DNA of 20,436 bases, taken from positions 1 through 20,436 of the IMG/VR virus record IMGVR_UViG_2690316086_000007; one strand, 5' to 3'. The stretch comes from a virus. Lineage: Duplodnaviria; Heunggongvirae; Uroviricota; Caudoviricetes. This document shows, in pieces, positions 218 to 20,181 of the stretch. The position numbers were made by a program, and so were the translations under genes. Positions within the stretch are counted from its first letter, which is position 1, and the number at the start of each line of letters is the position of its first letter. Below the pieces are notes generated by a model. The model saw nothing but the letters and a program-made list of their open reading frames with translations, ran no database searches and was not told the DNA's origin.

Positions 218-2851
218 GTGGGTAAAAAACTCATGGCATCCCTTGAGGAAGCCGGACAGCGTGAAAAGCTGGCACAAAGCATCATCAGCAAGCGTCAGGC
301 AACAGAACAAGACCCGGTGGCCCGTGCTTTTGCCACACTGAAGGTGCTTCCCGTTTATCTGCGTGAACCTCTGAGCCGCCACCTCTCTTTCCTGCGCAAA
401 AAACAGGAAGCCGATCGCCAGAAAGGCAAAAAGAGCTGGCAGGCTGAACGCTACGCGCGCGGAACCCTGCGCAAAATATTCGAACGTCTGGACCGCACCG
501 ATCACCGCTGGCTGACACCGGGTTATCGCTCCCTTGCCGGACGCGAACGCCTGGACGATTTGCTTTACCTGCCGCAGCTCAACAAACACCAGATACAGAC
601 GCTGGCCACCATGACGGCGGCGATGTTCAGCAGCACCTTCGAAAAACTCTGCGATGGCTTTGGCGCGACTGATGGCGAACTGACCATGGATGTAACGCTG
701 AAGGCGTATCAGATGCTGGCCCGCATGGCGTTACACCTGCACGCCATGCCTCCACATTATGACGCACTGACAACAGACAAAGACCGGAGGAACGAACCGG
801 ACACGGAGCTGCTGCCGGGCGCAATCCTTCGCCTGACCTGTGCGGAATGGTGGAAACGCAAACTGTGGCTGTTACGTTGCGAGTGGAGAGAAGAACAACT
901 CCGCGCCGCCTGTCTGGTTTCCAGAAAAACATCACCCTATCTGAGCCAGGACGCGTTAAGCGAGTTTCGCGCACAGCGCGAGAAAACACGCGATTTCCTG
1001 AAAAGTTTCATGCTGGAAAATGAAGACGGGTTCACGATTGATCTCGAGACAGTGTATTACGCGGGAGTAAGTAACCCGGTTCACCGTAAGGCAGAAATGA
1101 TGGCCACCATGAAGGGGCTGGAACTTCTGGCCGAAGCCCGTGGCGACAGAGCGGTGTTTCTGACTGTCACCTGCCCGTCAAAATACCACGCAACAACGGA
1201 GAACGGTCATCCGAATCCCAAATGGAACGGGGCCACTATGCACGACTCCAGCGATTACCTGGTTAACACGTTTTTTGCGGCGGTCCGCAAAAAACTGAAC
1301 CGCGACGGCCTGCGCTGGTATGGCATCCGCACGGTGGAGCCTCATCATGACGGCACGGTGCACTGGCACATGATGGTTTTTGCTCATCCTGACGAGATTG
1401 TAACCATCGTGTCCCACGTCTGCGATATTGCCATTCAGGAAGACCGCCACGAGCTGGGCAATGACATAACTCCGCGTTTTAAGGCGGAGTACGTCGACGG
1501 CTCAAAAGGCACGCCAACCAGCTACATCGCCACCTACATCGGAAAGAACCTGGACAGCCGCGCCGTGGATGGCATCGACCCGAAAACGGGCAAGCCACGC
1601 GTTGACCACGAAACAGGTAAATCAATGGCCGAGAGCGTGGAGCGCGCCATCGGCTGGGCGCGCCTTCACCGGGTCCGTCAGTTCCAGTTCTTTGGCATCC
1701 CCTCCCGTCAGGTGTGGCGTGAACTGCGCCGCCTTGCCAGCCAGATGGCACGCAATCCGGAAGGCCCGCAACGGCTGAAAGATGATGCAATGGATGCGGT
1801 ACTCGCTGCCGCCGATGCCGGGTGTTTTGCCACCTACATTGAAAAACAGGGTGGCGTGCTTGTTCCACGCAAGGACTACCTGATTCGCACCGCCTACGAC
1901 CTCGCAGATGAGCTGAACGATTACGGCGAACAGAGCGTACAGATTTACGGGATCTGGTCACCACTCATCGGGGAATCCTCCCGTGTGTGCACGCATCCGG
2001 ATAACTGGAAGCTGGTAAGACGTAAACCAGAACCGGAAGACAACGCCCACGAAAATGGTTTTGACCTTCAGGGCGGCCCTGCCGCCCCTTGGACTCGTGG
2101 CAATAACTGTCCCCGTGTACAGGAAACGGACAACAACGGGACAGAACAGCCGGAAGAACGGCCAGCACCGTGGCCGCAGCTTCCTGACGGCGTTGAAGTG
2201 AACGAATGGATGCATTCACTGAAACGGCACGAACGCCGGGCGCTGATGCGTTCGCTTCGTGACAAACAGGCAAAAAACAGCAGCGATGAAATGCAGAACT
2301 GGACACAGAGCCGCAAACAGCCACAGCCTTTGCCTGATAACCACGAGTTACTCGCTAAAGAATGGCGGGAGTCTGCTGAATCTCTCGGCCTGCATATTGG
2401 TGAACAGCAGATGCAGCACCTGTTACGGGGCGGCAGCCTGTACGTTGACGGCAGCATCATTGCACCGCAGGGATTTGAAATTGTACGCAAACCGGATACC
2501 CGCCCGGACAGCCAAATCACGCAGCTCTGGCAGCGCCTGAGCCGTAATCACGGCGTAAGCAGCACGGAGATCCGCCATAACCCGGTCGCCAGCTATCTGG
2601 AACAGCTGGGGGCATCAGACCCCGAAGCCGCCGCACGTCTGGTATCCACACTTCAGCAGGACCAGAACACCATGCCCACCCCCGTTACCGTGCTTTCTGA
2701 CATGCTGCGCGCCATCCGTGACGCAGAGCACGCACAGAGAATCAGTGAAACCACTGAACGCGCCCACCGCAAAGCAGACCTGCTGCGGGGTAGCCTGACC
2801 AGTGGAAACAAAAAAACAGACAGAAACGGGATTCACAAATCCCGTAAATGA
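218..2851 (+). CDS. A: Rolling-circle replication initiation endonuclease, P2 gpA family
   Basis: 877-aa ORF with motifs TVTCPSKYH, VEPHHDGTVHWHMMVF (HUH-type), YIATYIGKNLDS and GWARLHRVRQFQFFGIP, collinear with P2 gpA as recalled. Start is uncertain (GTG 218 or ATG 233), and the frame stays open upstream to the IS junction at 128. Confidence 0.85.
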   Translation: MGKKLMASLEEAGQREKLAQSIISKRQATEQDPVARAFATLKVLPVYLREPLSRHLSFLRKKQEADRQKGKKSWQAERYARGTLRKIFERLDRTDHRWLTPGYRSLAGRERLDDLLYLPQLNKHQIQTLATMTAAMFSSTFEKLCDGFGATDGELTMDVTLKAYQMLARMALHLHAMPPHYDALTTDKDRRNEPDTELLPGAILRLTCAEWWKRKLWLLRCEWREEQLRAACLVSRKTSPYLSQDALSEFRAQREKTRDFLKSFMLENEDGFTIDLETVYYAGVSNPVHRKAEMMATMKGLELLAEARGDRAVFLTVTCPSKYHATTENGHPNPKWNGATMHDSSDYLVNTFFAAVRKKLNRDGLRWYGIRTVEPHHDGTVHWHMMVFAHPDEIVTIVSHVCDIAIQEDRHELGNDITPRFKAEYVDGSKGTPTSYIATYIGKNLDSRAVDGIDPKTGKPRVDHETGKSMAESVERAIGWARLHRVRQFQFFGIPSRQVWRELRRLASQMARNPEGPQRLKDDAMDAVLAAADAGCFATYIEKQGGVLVPRKDYLIRTAYDLADELNDYGEQSVQIYGIWSPLIGESSRVCTHPDNWKLVRRKPEPEDNAHENGFDLQGGPAAPWTRGNNCPRVQETDNNGTEQPEERPAPWPQLPDGVEVNEWMHSLKRHERRALMRSLRDKQAKNSSDEMQNWTQSRKQPQPLPDNHELLAKEWRESAESLGLHIGEQQMQHLLRGGSLYVDGSIIAPQGFEIVRKPDTRPDSQITQLWQRLSRNHGVSSTEIRHNPVASYLEQLGASDPEAAARLVSTLQQDQNTMPTPVTVLSDMLRAIRDAEHAQRISETTERAHRKADLLRGSLTSGNKKTDRNGIHKSRK

Positions 2852-2934
2852 GCAAAAAACGTGCCGCGATATATGAGGCGCGCACAAAACAGGCAAAAGC
2901 GGGATTTAAAAATCCTGTAAACGATTAATTAATC
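2827..2934 (+). promoter_or_regulatory. Palindromic repeat pair plus 12-bp perfect palindrome upstream of parM; candidate operator/centromere-like site
   Basis: CGGGATTcacaAATCCCGtaaa at 2827-2848 (perfect 7-bp arms) and GGGATTTaaaAAATCCtgtaaa at 2901-2921 share a ~21-bp unit 74 bp apart. GATTAATTAATC (2923-2934) is a perfect palindrome just upstream of the parM RBS (AAGGA 2940-2944). Confidence 0.35.
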
Positions 2935-2952
2935 AACATAAGGAAAAGCGAC

Positions 2953-3912
2953 ATGAAAATTTGTATCGACGACGGCTCCACCAACATCAAGCTGGCATGG
3001 GCTGAGAACGGCGAACGCCGCAACGCCATCAGCCCGAACAGCTTCAAGTCGGAATGGTCTGCGCCGTTCGGTGGCACGCAGCCCGCGAACTACATGCTTG
3101 ATGGCGTGCGCTATGGTTTTGATCCGGTCAGCGATCGCTTTGTCCAGACGACCGACACGCAATACCAGTACAGCGATGTGAATGTCATTGCCATTCATCA
3201 CGCACTGGTCAAATCAGGCATCACGCCACAGGAGGTGGATGTGGTTGTCACCCTGCCACTGAGCGAGTATTTCGACACAAACGCACAGCCGGATATGGCC
3301 AACATCAGCCGCAAAAAATCGAACGTTATGCGCCCGGTGGAGTACCAGAACGGCGAAGCATTCACTATCCGTAACGTACGGGTTATGCCTGAATCCATTC
3401 CGGCTGGCTTTAAAGCACTGGCTGACATGAGTCCGTTTGAATCCCTGCTGATTGTGGATTTAGGCGGAACCACACTGGATGTGGCAAAGGTTCAGGGGCA
3501 ACTGGCAGGTATCAGCCAGGTGTTTTGCGATCCACACGTAGGCGTTTCCCTGATGGCCGATGCCGTACTGTCGGTGATGGCCACTAACGGTATGCGTACC
3601 AGTCACCACATCGCCAATACCATTATCGAACATCGCCATGATGAAGCCTGGTTGCGCCAGCACATCCACAATGACGCGCATTACGCCAGCCTGATGGCGG
3701 TTATTCGTGAAAAGGAAGAAACACTGAAACAACGCGTGATCCGCGCGCTGGCGGGCTTTTCGGGTTACGGGCGGGTGATGGTTGTCGGTGGCGGGGCGGA
3801 GATTGTGGCACCCGCTATCCGCGAAGCCTGCGGAGTTAATGCGACTTTCATCGCGGACGGGGTGCCACAGTTTGCTCTGGTTAATGGGCTGTACGCAATG
3901 GACAAGGAGTAA
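2953..3912 (+). CDS. parM: ParM/StbA-family actin-like segregation ATPase
   Basis: 319 aa; collinear similarity to plasmid R1 ParM as recalled (IDDGSTNIKL, ISPNSFK, YSDVNV..HHAL, VMPESIPAG, IDLGGTTLD, FSGY, VGGGAEI, LVNG). RBS AAGGA 8 nt upstream of ATG. Confidence 0.85.
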   Translation: MKICIDDGSTNIKLAWAENGERRNAISPNSFKSEWSAPFGGTQPANYMLDGVRYGFDPVSDRFVQTTDTQYQYSDVNVIAIHHALVKSGITPQEVDVVVTLPLSEYFDTNAQPDMANISRKKSNVMRPVEYQNGEAFTIRNVRVMPESIPAGFKALADMSPFESLLIVDLGGTTLDVAKVQGQLAGISQVFCDPHVGVSLMADAVLSVMATNGMRTSHHIANTIIEHRHDEAWLRQHIHNDAHYASLMAVIREKEETLKQRVIRALAGFSGYGRVMVVGGGAEIVAPAIREACGVNATFIADGVPQFALVNGLYAMDKE

Positions 3913-3916
3913 ACCA

Positions 3917-4228
3917 ATGACGACACCAACCAGACGGATAAGTTTCTATCTGAAGCCCGCCGCCGTCAAGAACGAAGGCGAAGCATGCGCCTGGCTGGAC
4001 AGCCTTACACCAGAAGCCCGCAAAAGTGGTCAACGCGTGGCTTTTCTGGCCGGACTGGCACTTATGAAAATTAATCCGGCAGAGGCTTACCGACTGGCTG
4101 CATGGGCTGACGATGAAGCGTTATCCCTGACACAAACCAGGACAGAACGCCCCGCATCACAGCCAGTATCAACCGCACAGATAACCAGTCAGATGGCCGG
4201 AAATATCCGGGCGTTATTTCCTGAATAA
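3917..4228 (+). CDS. parR: ParR/StbB-like partition adaptor (ribbon-helix-helix type)
   Basis: 103 aa from ATG 3917, 4 nt after the parM stop, with GGAG RBS. Similar to R1 ParR as recalled (ISFYLKP.., AFLAGLAL, C-terminal ..RALFPE). The longer ORF from 3782 overlaps parM and is rejected. Confidence 0.7.
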   Translation: MTTPTRRISFYLKPAAVKNEGEACAWLDSLTPEARKSGQRVAFLAGLALMKINPAEAYRLAAWADDEALSLTQTRTERPASQPVSTAQITSQMAGNIRALFPE

Positions 4229-4236
4229 CACAACAT

Positions 4237-4254
4237 CAGGGCGAGTTCGCCCTG
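4237..4254 (+). terminator. GC-rich hairpin immediately after parR (possible terminator, no U-tract)
   Basis: CAGGGCG-agtt-CGCCCTG, a perfect 7-bp stem 9 nt after the parR stop, followed by CTCTCC rather than a T-run. Confidence 0.3.
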
Positions 4255-4291
4255 CTCTCCACCTCAGAACATAAACAAAGAGAACGACTTA

Positions 4292-4675
4292 ATGAGCGAA
4301 ATCAACTATCAGGCATTACGTGAACGTTATTCACCTGTGCCAGTACCGAAATGCCCTATTTGCGGCGAGGAAATGTCAATTCAGCGAATATCTGGAGCAC
4401 AGGTTGTTTATGCCTGCTCCGGTTATGGTGATGATGGAGATTTCAAAATTGGCCGAACTCTTGCCGACGAACATTATGAAAAATCACGCGTAACAGTGTT
4501 GGATGTCGGGAATCCTGAAGTATTGGCGCTACTTGATTGGCTGGAAACCAAAGACAACCGAATCGCTGAACTGGAAAAAATCGCCACTGACTATGCACTT
4601 AAATTACAGAAAGCACAGGACGCATTAAAGTACGCCGCTTTGCTGCATAGCAGGACAGCGCAGCTACAAGACTAA
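4292..4675 (+). CDS. Hypothetical protein with N-terminal Cys motif (CPICGEE..YACSGYG) and C-terminal predicted coiled coil
   Basis: 127-aa ORF with AAGAGA RBS-like sequence 8-9 nt upstream; lower GC than flanking phage genes. I recognise no homolog. Confidence 0.5.
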   Translation: MSEINYQALRERYSPVPVPKCPICGEEMSIQRISGAQVVYACSGYGDDGDFKIGRTLADEHYEKSRVTVLDVGNPEVLALLDWLETKDNRIAELEKIATDYALKLQKAQDALKYAALLHSRTAQLQD

Positions 4676-4766
4676 CTTAAAGCGGAAGATTAATACATGG
4701 TGAGTCGGGGTAATTTGTTTTTATCCCGACAAATAAACAAAAAAAGTGGACTATCTCTGTAGTATC

Positions 4767-5297
4767 TTATTCAGCATCGTCTCGTGCAGTCTGTGCATAC
4801 GTCACAACAACGCCCAATGCATTAGTTTTCTTTTCAACATAGATAATATTGTCATATTCATAGTTACCATACGGATAGCAAATAAGAATATTTTTATGCA
4901 GATCGGGATCATCAACAAACGCTCCGGAACAGCTTCTTGAACTACCGGATGTATACTCATACGGTGCAACATATGGTGATGTTACTCCTGGTAAAAAATA
5001 AGTCACCATCATAAGAGGGATAATCAGGAATATCCCTGTAAGAATGCAAGAGCCAGCATAAACCTTCAGGTATTCCGACAGTCCTTTCCAGCCACTTTGC
5101 TTCACTACCCCCCTCTTCACCAGAAACAAGGAGAAGAAAAAGGACATACCCATACTACACAAGATGTAATAATTGGATATACGCGAATTAAGATATGTAA
5201 TCCTGTAGATATCTGCCCTCCACCAGTAAAAGAGGAAAATAATCCCTAGCACTGAAACAGTCATGCAAATCAAATAAGGATATGAATCTTTCTTCAT
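4767..5297 (-). CDS. Hypothetical integral membrane protein (3 predicted TM helices plus ~70-aa C-terminal domain), AT-rich cargo gene
   Basis: 176-aa ORF. Hydrophobic segments YLICMTVSVLGIIFLFYWW, YYILCSMGMSFFFSLFLV and SCILTGIFLIIPLMMVTYFL. Markedly AT-rich, with codon usage unlike the surrounding phage genes. Weak RBS. Confidence 0.5.
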   Translation of the reverse strand: MKKDSYPYLICMTVSVLGIIFLFYWWRADIYRITYLNSRISNYYILCSMGMSFFFSLFLVKRGVVKQSGWKGLSEYLKVYAGSCILTGIFLIIPLMMVTYFLPGVTSPYVAPYEYTSGSSRSCSGAFVDDPDLHKNILICYPYGNYEYDNIIYVEKKTNALGVVVTYAQTARDDAE

Positions 5298-5340
5298 GTC
5301 TTGCGCTCATTAAAATTTCCCTGCTACGAACAAATTTACC

Positions 5341-5826
5341 ATCCGTTTTTTGCGCAGAAAACAGCACGATGCACACTGCACGATAGTGCACAAATTTGCA
5401 CAATTTTTTTGAACGACTTTTTACCCTTCCGGCCCGCATGGCGGCTGGATCCGTCAAGGATCCGTGCGTGCACAAAAAAACGCGTTTTTTCTGCGCGCAG
5501 GTGACGGGGGAACAGCCCGCGTTTCAGGGGGTAAATAGCATTCCCTGAACGATGTCGCAGAGATACAACAGAATGGCTGTATTTCTCACGCTGAGCGTGA
5601 AAAAGACGTGAGGGCTTTTGATTTATGGGGTGAAAGGTAAGGCCGTCAAAATCGCACTGAGACGGCGAGAACATGCAGTCAACGCGGTGGGATTGCGTAA
5701 GAGTCTGACTGTCGATGGTGGCGATAAACTGGAAGGCGTCGTGAAATTATCTGACTGATACAGGAGCTGGAGAGTCGGGGCATAAATTTTTTATGCCCCG
5801 GCGAAGCAGCAGACAAGCGAAGCGCG
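5341..5826. other. Non-coding region between cargo slot and portal gene; expected location of the cos site and packaging signals by P2 synteny (exact cos not identified)
   Basis: No convincing ORF. Dense in direct and inverted repeats (TGCACA array 5364-5403; GGATCCGT x2 at 5447-5465; AAAAAACGCGTTTTTT palindrome 5474-5490; 11-bp-stem hairpin 5776-5800). In P2 the cos lies between old and Q. Confidence 0.4.
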
Positions 5827-6873
5827 TCAGGATGTGGGCTGGGTGTCTAACAGTGCGTAAGGGTTAAAGCGGATCACCTCTTCGCCAAGCCAGTCATTGA
5901 TGTGCTTCATGGCCTCCATGACGGGCATCAGCTCGTTAATTGCGTAAACCCGCGCGGCCTTCTCCACATCACCAAACGCACTTTTTTCGCCCGGCATCGC
6001 CCCCATCAGTTGCGGCGGAACGCGGTGCGCAGCCAGCACATCATCACGGGATGCCGCCTTAACATTCATGAACTCATCCTTTGCGGTGATCTGCTGGAAC
6101 GGCAAAATTTGCACCCCCTCTTTGCCCCCGTTGGGAGCATGGATGAGCACGTTTTTAAACGCACCACCACCACGCGCACCCTGTAACGTTTCTTTCAGGG
6201 AGTCCATGCTTTCGCGGTTTACCTGCGCTGCACCGATGTAGATGATGCACCCGGCGTGGGATCCATTGTCGTAATACAGTTTTCTGAACATGTCCGCCGA
6301 ATGAGACAGGCTGGCCGAGAGTAATGCGCCAAGATATTCCGGCATGCCGTAAATTTCCTGGTTAATGTCCGGATTCATCAGGTGGCACACTTTGCCAGGG
6401 CGAAACTGAAACGCGTCCTTGCCATCCTGCACATACCACCATGATTCAAGATCGCTTCCGCGTCGCATGTATTTCGCCAGTGCGTGCCGTAATTTAAGCG
6501 GTTCGCCGAGCATATTGCTTCGAAGCTCAAGGAATGCGTTACCGAACACAAACCAGTCCAGCGCCAGCGCCGAGAAATCCTGCCGGGAAAGCAGCGGGTG
6601 CGGGATGTAGCAACCGAGTAATACATTGCGCTTAAAGTAAAGCGCAGACTGATGCCAGGACGTTTGCCGGGCAGCTCTTGCCAGACCGTACCAGTCCACC
6701 GGGGTTTCATACCACCGCCCGTTATCAGCACAGTACATATTGTCCAGCAGGTCATGCCCGGTCAGGCGATAAGGACCATCAAATGTGAATGCACTGAGCG
6801 ATGATTCTTTCCTGAGCGCATCAGCGAGATCAATGCGTGAACTCATGCGCACTTTTTTATTTTTTCTGCTCAT
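5827..6873 (-). CDS. Q: Portal protein, P2 gpQ-like
   Basis: 348-aa ORF immediately downstream of and translationally coupled to the terminase gene (minus-strand TGATG overlap at 6871-6875); position and size match P2 Q. Confidence 0.8.
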   Translation of the reverse strand: MSRKNKKVRMSSRIDLADALRKESSLSAFTFDGPYRLTGHDLLDNMYCADNGRWYETPVDWYGLARAARQTSWHQSALYFKRNVLLGCYIPHPLLSRQDFSALALDWFVFGNAFLELRSNMLGEPLKLRHALAKYMRRGSDLESWWYVQDGKDAFQFRPGKVCHLMNPDINQEIYGMPEYLGALLSASLSHSADMFRKLYYDNGSHAGCIIYIGAAQVNRESMDSLKETLQGARGGGAFKNVLIHAPNGGKEGVQILPFQQITAKDEFMNVKAASRDDVLAAHRVPPQLMGAMPGEKSAFGDVEKAARVYAINELMPVMEAMKHINDWLGEEVIRFNPYALLDTQPTS

Positions 6874-17036: not shown

Positions 17037-19037
17037 ATGAGTACCACAACACGAAAATTTAAAACCATTATCACCGATACGGGTGCCAAAAAATTAGCGC
17101 AGGCAGCCGCACCAGATGGTAAACCCGTCCGCCTGACACATATGGCCGTGGGTGACGGCGGCGGTACTTTACCCACGCCAGACAGTAAGCAGACCCGTCT
17201 TGTGCGTGAGGTGTGGCGACATACCGTTAATCGCGTCTTCCTGGACGCAACACATCAGAACCGCATTATTGCGGAGCTGGCTATTCCTCCAGAAACGGGC
17301 GGATTCTGGATCCGGGAAATTGGTGTGTTTGATGAGCACGGCGATTTAATCGCGGTAGGCAATACTGCCGAAAGTTACAAGCCAGCCGTTGCCGAAGGGT
17401 CCGGTCGTGCACAGACATTTCGCACCATTCTGACCGTATCCAGCACTGCCACCGTGGCACTTACCGTGGATAACACCATGGTGATGGCCACAGTGGATTA
17501 CGTGGATGACAAACTGAAAGAGCATGAACAGTCACGACGTCACCCGGACGCCTCGCTGACCGCAAAAGGCTTTGTTCAACTCAGTAGCGCCACTAACAGC
17601 GTGTCTGAAACACAAGCTGCAACGCCGAAAGCAGTAAAGGACGCGTATGACCTTGCTAACGGGAAATATACTGCGCAGGATGCCAGCACGACGCGAAAAG
17701 GCCTTGTTCAGCTCAGTAGCGCCACCAATAGCGATTCTGAAACGCTGGCGGCAACGCCAAAGGCGGTAAAGGCAGCATATGACCTTGCTAACGGGAAATA
17801 TACCGCACAGGACGCTACCACAGAGCGAAAAGGTCTTGTCCAGCTCAGTAGTGCCACCAACAGCGATTCTGAAACGCTGGCGGCAACGCCAAAGGCGGTA
17901 AAGGCAGCATATGACCTTGCTAATGGCAAATACACCGCACAGGATGCAACAACAGCACAAAAAGGGATAGTCCAGCTTACTAGTGCAACCAACAGCACGT
18001 CTGAAACGCTTGCCGCGACTCCGAAAGCGGTGAAAGCTGCTAATGACAATGCAAACGGGCGTGTGCCCTCTGGACGTAAGGTTAATGGCAAACCACTGAC
18101 CAATGATGTCAATGTTACATCACAGGATATTTTTAACGATCAGAGTATTGAGATTGGTGCAAACCAGAATCTGGATAATTACAAAACGCCGGGGCTGTAC
18201 CATCAGCCTGCGAATGCCAATACAAGTGCAGCGCTGAAATACCCAGAGAATCTTGCCGGTACACTGGTTGTGCTTAAAAGTGCCGGGATAACACAGATTT
18301 ACTATGTGTATAACACATCCAGAAGCTATACCCGCAGCCAGTACTCAACGGGTGACTGGACAGCATGGACGCCGCAGGATTCATTTCCTGTAGGTGCGGC
18401 GATTCCGTGGCCTTCTGATTCAGTGCCTACAGGCTATGCCGTTATGCAGGGGCAGACTTTTGATAAAACAACCTATCCCCTGCTTGCAGCAGCTTATCCC
18501 TCTGGTGTACTCCCCGATATGCGTGGCTGGACAATCAAGGGCAAGCCCGCAAGTGGTCGAGCCGTATTGTCTCAGGAACAGGATGGCATTAAATCGCACA
18601 CCCACAGTGCCAGCGCATCCAGTACGGATTTGGGTACGAAAACCACATCGTCGTTTGATTACGGTACTAAATCAACGAATAACACAGGTGCACATACCCA
18701 CAATGTATCTGGTACTGCAAATAGTGCTGGCGCACATACTCATACCGTTCCATTAAGGAGACCAAACAGTGGAGGTATGAATTTCGACTGGCTTGATGGT
18801 GCATCAAGTGGCACGGTCGTGGGGAATGGAACAGTGCCTTCTTCTGGTGCACACACCCACTCAGTATCAGGCACTGCTGCAAGTGCAGGGGCGCATGCAC
18901 ATACAGTTGGTATTGGCGCTCATACGCACTCTGTTGCGATTGGTTCACATGGACATACCATCACCGTTAACGCTGCTGGTAACGCGGAAAACACCGTTAA
19001 AAACATCGCATTTAATTATATTGTGAGGCTTGCATAA
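17037..19037 (+). CDS. H: Tail fibre protein, P2 gpH-like N-terminus with a His-rich (HxH) C-terminal tip
   Basis: 666 aa; N-terminal ~190 aa collinear with P2 H ([62 protein letters not shown]). C-terminus carries repeated GAHTH/GAHAH/GSHGH motifs and ends ..[11 protein letters not shown]. Confidence 0.9.
17565..18062 (+). repeat. In-frame tandem repeat (4 units of 132 bp / 44 aa, last unit truncated) inside tail-fibre gene H
   Basis: Units start at 17565, 17697, 17829 and 17961 (KG[FLI]VQL[ST][31 protein letters not shown]..). Units 2 and 3 are near-identical at the nucleotide level. P2 H has two such units as recalled. Confidence 0.85.
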
Positions 19038-19654
19038 TGGCATTCAGAATGAGTGAACAATCACGTACTGTAAAAATTTATAACCTGCTGGCCGGAACTA
19101 ATGAGTTTATTGGTGAAGGTGACGCATATATTCCACCTCATACAGGGCTGCCAGCTAATTCTACAGATATCGCCCCACCGGAAATTCCTGCTGGCTTTGT
19201 GGCAGTTTTTAACAGTGAAAATGAATCGTGGAATATTGTTGAAGACCATCGTGGTAAAACGGTCTATGACGTGGCCTCGGGGGACGCGTTGTTTATTTCT
19301 GAACCCGGACCGCTACCAGAGAATGTCACCTGGTTGTCGCCAGCAGGGGAGTATCAGAAGTGGGACGGCGTATCCTGGGTGAAGGATGAGGAAGCAGAAA
19401 AACTGTTTCGGATACGGGAAGCGGAAGAGAAAAAGGCAAGGTTGATCCAGGAGGCAACAGATAACATCGCAATTCTGCAGGATGCAGTTAATCTTGAAAT
19501 AGCAACAAACGAGGAAAATTCACAACTGGATTCCTGGAGAAAATACAGAGTATTAGTGAGTCGAATTGACACCAGTACAGCTCCGGATATCGTATGGCCA
19601 GAGCTGATGAATCAGGGTTATGTGCGGGAGGACGAGCAGATAACTTCAGACTGA
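19037..19654 (+). CDS. G: Tail fibre assembly chaperone, P2 gpG/Tfa-like
   Basis: ATG overlaps the H stop (TAATG); 205 aa; positional and compositional match to Tfa-family chaperones that follow tail-fibre genes. Confidence 0.75.
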
Positions 19655-20181
19655 AATTTAGTGATGAATGTTGAATCATCAGGAATATCATGCAATACCA
19701 ATGCATGAGCACCTATTGTGACATTGTTTCCTATACGCACTTTGCCACCAAGAATGGTGGCATTACAACCAATGGTCACATTATGTCCTATAACAATATC
19801 CATATCATTAAAATCACCACGTAGCCCAATAGTTACCCCTGGTTTTATTGAACAATTTTCACCGATGGTTACTTTGTGACCGATAACAACACTATTGAGA
19901 TAAGAAATATCAAAGCCTTTCCCTATATTTACAGTTAAAGGGACTGTTACATTATATTTATCAAGAATGAAACGTTCTATTTTCCCCGCAATCTTCCGAC
20001 AGTATCCGCCTTTATCAAAAAGGTATTTGGCTATGCGCCACCAAAATAAATAACGAACTCTTCTATGTTTTATTGCGCGAACAATTGCCTTTCGCCAGGA
20101 GAAAGGACGCTCGCTACCGATTACTTCATAGTGAATACAGTCTTTAAGTTCATTAATATTCATATCTCTATTATTTAGCAT
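19618..20181 (-). CDS. Hexapeptide-repeat (left-handed beta-helix) acetyltransferase, WcaF/WbbJ/CysE-like; AT-rich moron
   Basis: 187 aa; repeated [LIV]G..X hexads ([56 protein letters not shown]) and N-terminal FWWR segment as in small sugar O-acetyltransferases. About 35% GC against ~55% for the phage genes. 3' end overlaps G convergently by 37 bp. Confidence 0.75.

Follow-up and report, generated by a model that had tools for sequence, protein, structure and literature searches.

The SieA protein of phage P22 (162-164 aa, three transmembrane (TM) helices) has been located experimentally in the inner membrane, where it blocks the ejection-protein conduit, and it is alone sufficient to block DNA entry (PMC10883804). 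HK97 gp15 is a superinfection-exclusion (Sie) protein of the inner membrane as well; it is encoded by a moron and has non-prophage homologues in Enterobacteriaceae, and the criteria by which morons are recognised follow Juhala and Hendrix (PMC3594210). Phage P2 carries its lysogenic-conversion exclusion genes, old and tin, on the minus strand between gpA and gpQ, with their promoter beside cos, and this interval is defined in the hotspot passages of Rousset 2022 (PMC9122126) as the cos-proximal hotspot of P2-like prophages.

Here we describe a gene in the same interval of an Escherichia coli prophage, contained in a stretch of viral DNA of 20,436 nucleotides that was analysed as a whole (the window; IMG/VR record IMGVR_UViG_2690316086_000007). 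It had been singled out from the nucleotide sequence as an AT-rich, separately acquired gene for a membrane protein, and as a candidate for either abortive infection (Abi) or superinfection exclusion.

The cassette and its place in the prophage

We identify the window as an E. coli prophage of the P2 family and the P88 type (Xuanwuvirus, Peduoviridae), and chromosomes of STEC O121, O103 and O45 are 99.9% identical to it over window 2900-5900. As the original prediction had it, the membrane-protein gene occupies the P2 old/tin slot; its orientation is that of old and tin (Table 1). The content of this slot proved to be variable: phages P88 and vB_EcoM-705R2 hold other genes there, and the membrane-gene cargo is found in 62 of the 1564 genomes that match the flanks. 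Searches with the cos sequences of P2 and 186 gave no match, which argues that the P88-type cos differs from both, and the site was thus not placed; an Rfam scan of 4200-5900 found no RNA family.

Table 1. Coordinates of the genes, protein segments and control elements discussed in the text (window numbering)
Feature	Position	Strand	Remarks
gpA	218-2851		first gene in the order listed here
parM	2953-3912		between gpA and parR
parR			after parM, before the Ead/Ea22-like gene
Truncated Ead/Ea22-like zinc-ribbon gene	4292-4675	+	PF13935, E = 2.5e-28; convergent with the membrane-protein gene
Mobile cassette	4678-5434	-	757 bp; upstream control region, ORF and 3' hairpin; homology to phage 434
3' stem-loop	4704-4730	-	past the stop codon; conserved
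Membrane-protein gene	4767-5297	-	
Five-stranded beta-barrel	4785-4985	-	residues 105-171; AlphaFold; predicted periplasmic
Cys140	4878-4880	-	in the barrel
Cys123	4929-4931	-	in the barrel
TM helix 3	4995-5081	-	residues 73-101; AlphaFold and hydropathy
G6 homopolymer	5108-5113	-	codons 62-64, followed by GTG (V65) at 5103-5105
TM helix 2	5115-5186	-	residues 38-61; AlphaFold and hydropathy
TM helix 1	5211-5282	-	residues 6-29; AlphaFold and hydropathy
Shine-Dalgarno-like TGAG	5306-5309	-	8 nt before the ATG
Predicted extended -10 element TGGTAAATT	5333-5341	-	44 nt upstream of the ATG
Near-palindrome TTTTCTGCGCAAAAAA	5346-5361		over the -35 region
Non-coding DNA			about 530 nt, between the membrane-protein gene and gpQ
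Portal gene gpQ	5827-6873	-	followed by the terminase gene gpP

The gene has a GC content of 39.0%, as compared with 54.5 +/- 4.6% in 34 non-overlapping 531-nt windows taken elsewhere in the window (z = -3.4), and the 91-nt spacer between it and the convergent Ead/Ea22-like gene has 35%. It is absent from P88, which matches the flanks on both sides at 95-97% identity (2801-4254 and 5374-6000), the homology to the P88 backbone stopping at 4254 and resuming at 5374. The cassette is 76% identical at the DNA level to the xis-exo region of the lambdoid phages 434, mEp332 and 2B8, and the homology to 434 takes in about 135 nt upstream of the ATG as well as the 3' stem-loop. The AT-richness and the separate acquisition that had been proposed are therefore borne out; the interval proposed for the island (4676-5340) contains the gene, and the true unit is slightly larger, running from 4678 to 5434.

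The suggestion that parMR and a neighbouring Cys-motif protein form a composite cargo island with the membrane gene did not hold. Phage P88 matches the parMR stretch (window 2801-4254) at 97% identity, and because this stretch is shared with a phage from which the membrane gene is absent, we assign it to the P88 backbone rather than the cargo. As for the Cys-motif protein, it is the truncated Ead/Ea22-like protein, for which PGAP remarks 'missing C-terminus' in a 99.9%-identical genome; 2 nt separate its stop codon from the junction with the cassette, where the 434-type homology begins (4678), as if the gene had been cut by the arrival of the cassette. Only in this P2-like lineage (8 of 86 loci) is it found beside the membrane gene, and there is hence no composite functional island. 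In every other context examined the flanking genes vary and no partner gene is conserved, so that the membrane gene behaves as a single-gene module. In the lambdoid copies a 56-aa ORF annotated as 'putative membrane protein' precedes the gene on the same strand (phage 434, locus L001, 4755-4925); since it is missing from the P2-like cassette, it is not an obligate partner.

The cassette also carries putative control elements of its own. Of 10 diverged loci, 6 (among them those of Salmonella, Enterobacter and Cedecea) have the pattern of the predicted extended -10 element, TGnTAAnTT, at -44 to -48, and two more have variants of it. A strict consensus scan called neither a promoter nor a terminator for the cassette, the TGGTAAATT element falling below its threshold. 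The near-palindrome TTTTCTGCGCAAAAAA, a possible operator, is identical in the window and in the 434-type allele, though dS in the adjoining ORF is about 1; non-coding blocks such as TTTTCTGCGCAAAAAA(C/T)GGATGGTAAATTTGT are identical between the alleles, and the synonymous sites of the ORF beside them are near saturation. At the Shine-Dalgarno (SD)-like position, six diverged loci have a purine-rich GGAG, GGGG or TGAG. The 3' stem-loop is kept in 434 and mEp332 with one compensatory pair change, and it is present in the minimum-free-energy structure computed for 4690-4770 (81 nt), a stretch that also contains a second upstream helix and as a whole reaches -16.2 kcal/mol (z = -2.7); because the stem-loop is without a U tract, it is not a canonical terminator. 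Given its deviant base composition, its absence from the syntenic close relative P88 and its 3' hairpin and probable promoter, the cassette fits the moron as Juhala and Hendrix defined it, with promoter and terminator function predicted from sequence.

Several repeats and shared stretches lie in or near the cassette. A 30-nt direct repeat of 73% identity (4698-4727 and 5768-5797) comprises the hairpins after the membrane gene and after the portal gene Q, and both copies end in CCCCGACTC; the likeness could be due to chance, or the repeat could be a reused terminator or a recombination anchor. The 60-nt stretch 5374-5434, which is common to the P88 backbone (95-97%) and to the region upstream of the phage-434 homologue, holds AAAAAAATTGTGCAAATTTGTGCAC (TGT-N12-ACT) and may be a recombination junction, or else a promoter remnant in P88-type phages that have lost the gene. 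Upstream of the cassette, a second A/T-flanked GC palindrome, AAAAAACGCGTTTTTTT (5470-5495, minus strand), resembles TTTTCTGCGCAAAAAA and may have to do with cos, terminase or the site of a regulator.

Two observations concern the prophage more broadly. The last approximately 20 residues of P88 gpA align in another frame (2811-2873) than the rest of the protein (128-2833), and gpA of the 99.9%-identical RM8352 is flagged as 'frameshifted' by PGAP; from the frame shift (window 218-2876) and the flag together, replication of the prophage may be defective. Immediately following the tail-fibre assembly gene (19037-19654), a further AT-rich island (minimum 35% GC) occupies window 19618-20181 on the minus strand, a site like that of the P2 Z/fun hotspot. 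It encodes an acyl/acetyltransferase of the hexapeptide-repeat kind (187 aa; PF00132, E = 1e-12), for which PADLOC gave no match, and the gene may be one of lysogenic conversion by surface modification.

The protein and its family

The predicted gene is present as an intact ORF of 176 aa with an ATG start, and intact ORFs of 173-178 codons were found in all 50 distinct loci extracted. Comparison of the window ORF with the 434-type allele (79% identical) gives a dN/dS of about 0.12 at a dS of about 1.0, with 0.10 for the C-terminal domain and 0.135 for the TM part; by this measure the ORF is under purifying selection. PGAP labels the gene a 'frameshifted' pseudogene in the near-identical RM8352, which we regard as an artefact because its reference consists of 200-aa models with a 24-aa N-terminal extension that is not conserved. 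The start MKK(D/N)SYPYL is conserved, with an SD-like purine motif 8-9 nt upstream, and since the position of this motif is kept, we favour the ATG at 5297 over the start of the 200-aa models. Phase variation at the G6 tract was considered and rejected: the tract is an in-frame G6 in all 62 complete genomes carrying the segment, and a G7 frameshift was seen in one IMG/VR locus (L083). At least 1000 contigs carry the annotation of a 112-aa product (P0131), a mis-annotation that we infer to be probably due to GAGGGGGG and the GTG that follows it, which resemble a strong ribosome-binding site and start.

As to architecture, the hydropathy profile has peaks at residues 8-26, 44-60 and 81-102, and AlphaFold, run with the 34-sequence family alignment, returned a model with a pLDDT of 91.4 and a pTM of 0.79. 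The model has three TM helices, a short strand in loop 1 (residues 34-36) and a five-stranded beta-barrel in which pLDDT is 91-97; the product is accordingly predicted to be an inner-membrane protein. The three helices and soluble C-terminal domain of the original prediction are thus recovered, and so is the Tyr-richness of that domain (9 Y in the C-terminal 73 residues), the 5 G among the same residues not making it notably Gly-rich.

Family-wide, the mean number of K and R residues is 1.7 in the N-terminus and 4.3 in loop 2, as against 2.3 in loop 1, and the C-terminal domain is neutral to acidic. From this charge bias we infer an N-in/C-out topology, with the barrel on the periplasmic side and cytoplasmic parts of only about 7 and 17 residues. 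Near-invariant cysteines are confined to the C-terminal domain: of the 34 sequences, 33 have C123, all have C140 and 31 have exactly two Cys in the domain, the pattern expected for a periplasmic disulfide. The barrel is also the best-conserved part of the family. Conserved positions cluster at W26, in loop 1 and in the barrel, and the near-invariant residues (W26, G118, C123, G125, I137, C140, K156 and G162) are all on the predicted periplasmic side. In fold the barrel weakly resembles OB folds and the small periplasmic barrels CusF and SilF, and a BFVD 'NfeD-like C-terminal domain' protein was among the weak Foldseek matches (E = 0.17).

Scans of the protein against Pfam, NCBIfam and PADLOC yielded nothing above threshold. 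With the defence HMMs of PADLOC-DB v2 there were 0 families at E <= 1, and in Pfam the query and all 34 members had only sub-threshold matches to unrelated membrane families and no match to the superinfection families (T4 Imm-like, SieB, YebO/gp15). A sequence-profile search of the PDB gave nothing relevant, and a search of the literature by locus tag and accession (WP_000120056, ECs0804, mEp332, 434) gave no functional data on family members. A direct family match, to phrog_1416 (residues 90-175, E = 5.5e-45), is to a PHROG with no function assigned; its 90-aa profile spans only TM3 and the barrel and may stem from gene calls that are N-terminally short, as the 112-aa product is.

A search by profile through 1.84 billion representative proteins yielded 59 matches. 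The family is restricted to Enterobacterales and one Orbus genome, all members being annotated 'hypothetical', and the full-length members keep one architecture, with identities to the query that fall as low as 22% in those aligned. Two large repeat proteins that matched the barrel profile, P0102 (3074 aa) and P0114 (PKD-like), were set aside as compositional matches of Cys and beta-strand and not homologues. In complete E. coli genomes the family is common (999 of 5426, or about 18%), 77 of the carriers having a >=99% allele and 918 an allele of about 78%; a scan of species-representative genomes produced one locus only. The lambdoid phages 434, mEp332 and 2B8 carry a 79%-identical copy between xis and exo, antisense to the pL operon. 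The copy in O157:H7 Sakai is ECs_0804 in prophage Sp3, and O157:H7 JEONG-1266 has a matching context. P2-like prophages of Salmonella, Enterobacter and Klebsiella have 55-57%-identical copies in the gpQ-gpA slot, and the Cedecea copy, because it adjoins an integrase fragment, is probably a prophage remnant. The distant homologues (Orbus and a 62%-GC enterobacterial contig) are chromosomal, with host-like GC and a non-prophage context, so the ancestral role of the family may have been cellular.

Two of these loci have neighbours of interest in their own right. The Klebsiella P2-like copy adjoins a 790-aa NB-ARC/AAA_16 STAND NTPase and a 279-aa protein (locus L096, 3281-6623), neither of them recognised by PADLOC-DB v2, and the pair may be an unclassified Avs-like defence system. 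On the chromosome of Orbus wheelerorum, the most distant member (P0115) has a Cas13a-Cas1-Cas2 locus and an HTH gene immediately upstream of it (locus L092, 835-7465).

Possible roles, superinfection exclusion among them

We consider envelope-level superinfection exclusion to be the likeliest role of this protein, with a probability of about 0.4, because its only sizeable conserved soluble part is predicted to face the periplasm and because the gene travels alone. With such tiny cytoplasmic parts and no conserved partner gene, we favour a direct block at the periplasm or inner membrane over a sensor-effector Abi role. Of the two functions originally put forward, both of which are plausible, exclusion is hence the better fit. 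The generalisation behind them, that small membrane proteins of the hotspot commonly act in exclusion or Abi, found no support in the passages concerned of Rousset 2022, which give TM proteins only within multi-gene systems (PMC9122126).

In the mechanism that we propose, a sigma-70 extended -10 promoter probably drives the cassette, which would make its transcription independent of the phage operons and would allow it in the lysogen. Three helices would anchor a disulfide-bearing, OB-like five-stranded barrel on the periplasmic face of the inner membrane, and the barrel would engage the DNA-delivery apparatus of an incoming phage (tape-measure or ejection proteins) or, alternatively, an inner-membrane or periplasmic host factor that this apparatus uses. 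Genome entry would thereby be blocked after adsorption, in a manner akin to the action of P22 SieA, HK97 gp15 or T4 Imm, the protein itself belonging to none of those families. Since the gene occurs in two unrelated phage types, its distribution gives no clue to the target. We count against exclusion the lack of a PADLOC match and of a relation to SieA, the promoter score under the scan threshold and the chromosomal setting of the distant homologues.

The same features can be read in other ways. A lysogenic-conversion factor that guards the envelope against threats other than phages (pore-forming colicins or microcins, CDI/T6SS effectors, lysozyme or antimicrobial peptides), its barrel binding the toxin or the toxin's entry partner, seems rather unlikely to us. 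Pore-forming colicin immunity proteins are inner-membrane proteins with 3-4 TM helices, and such a role would suit a small inner-membrane protein that is polytopic and has a barrel of the binding type in the periplasm, weakly resembling CusF and SilF; stand-alone chromosomal homologues with ameliorated GC suggest that there is a use independent of phages. No toxin gene, however, is adjacent in any locus examined, no Pfam immunity family was matched, and no 70-aa periplasmic domain is known from colicin immunity proteins. Morons such as cor do guard against colicin M as well (PMC3594210). That the gene is a non-functional remnant or an unexpressed pseudogene is very improbable. The PGAP flag in RM8352, the truncated Ea22-like and frameshifted gpA genes nearby and the single G7 variant could all be taken for signs of decay, but the flag stems from the 200-aa models, the MKK start and SD-like site are conserved, and a dN/dS of 0.12, 50 of 50 intact loci and the in-frame G6 of 62 of 62 complete genomes speak for a maintained gene.

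Location in a defence hotspot, where by the passages of Rousset 2022 on these systems TM proteins serve as effectors in several of them (PMC9122126), together with three TM helices that could oligomerise, would also accord with an Abi effector that permeabilises or depolarises the inner membrane on infection, so that the cell dies before phage release. We nonetheless find this distinctly unlikely, as no sensor partner is conserved, the cytoplasmic parts are minimal, PADLOC gave no match, and conservation is periplasmic rather than helical (dN/dS 0.135 in the TM part against 0.10 in the barrel); moreover, the predicted constitutive promoter would be risky with a toxic effector. Quite improbable, too, is a modulator of a host membrane machine for the benefit of the phage, whether as an NfeD-like scaffold of SPFH/FtsH-type complexes (e.g. 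HflKC-FtsH) or in the tuning of lysis or DNA entry. The succession of TM helices and a small C-terminal OB-like barrel matches that of short NfeD proteins such as YbbJ, and the weak BFVD match points the same way. Yet PF01957 (NfeD) matched none of the 34 members, hhalign against E. coli YbbJ gave a probability of 1%, no SPFH/stomatin-family gene is adjacent in any locus examined, and the YbbJ/QmcA domains are cytoplasmic, as opposed to the predicted periplasmic barrel here.

Returning to exclusion at the envelope, we tentatively suggest that this protein is the founding member of a widespread single-gene exclusion family, unrecognised before, that blocks genome delivery from the periplasmic side through binding to the DNA-delivery apparatus as it comes in, or to the inner-membrane receptor of that apparatus. 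It is a further tentative suggestion that this exclusion family takes the form of a 0.75-kb cassette exchanged between P2-like and lambdoid prophages, including phage 434 and O157:H7 Sp3. If the protein is active in this way, a common and compact single-gene determinant, one that the defence HMMs of PADLOC-DB v2 miss, would be added to the exclusion repertoire of E. coli and Salmonella prophages, and part of the phage resistance that is specific to strains of STEC and further lineages, and that matters for phage therapy and typing, could find an explanation in it. Its small periplasmic domain would also offer a handle on the transit of phage DNA across the periplasm and inner membrane, a step that is poorly understood. 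The cassette is in addition a clean case of moron exchange, from predicted promoter to hairpin, between temperate phages of the myovirus type (P2-like) and of the siphovirus type (lambdoid).

Comparison with described proteins and elements

With short NfeD proteins (YbbJ/YuaF, PF01957) the window protein has in common a series of TM helices followed by a small C-terminal OB-like barrel of about 75 residues; it differs from them in giving no sequence signal, in having no SPFH partner gene and in the predicted side of the membrane on which the barrel lies. With P2 old and tin the gene shares the hotspot and the strand, convergent with the gpA operon, the old/tin promoter being next to cos. Old, a cytoplasmic ATPase/nuclease, and Tin, which is soluble, have neither sequence nor architectural similarity to the window protein.

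The HK97 gp15/YebO moron is like this locus in its deviant GC, in encoding a small inner-membrane protein and in having non-prophage homologues. It is unlike it in sequence, to judge from the missing Pfam YebO match, and in the placement of the gp15 gene in the tail operon; gp15 is also much smaller and is not known to have a beta-barrel domain.

The likeness to P22 SieA is one of form. Both are prophage-encoded proteins of about 160-176 aa with three predicted TM helices, the membrane location and single-gene action of the window protein being predicted, and SieA is independently transcribed, as the window gene would be from its putative promoter. Membership of the SieA family was ruled out: hhalign of P22 SieA against our family gave a probability of 0.2%, indicating no detectable homology, and the SieA motif FxRYPxEAxxFNK is missing from the family alignment. 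Whereas the conserved motif of SieA is predicted to be cytoplasmic, the conserved domain of the window protein is a predicted periplasmic beta-barrel with a Cys pair. The protein family described here would be a new one, carried by an element of an already known kind.
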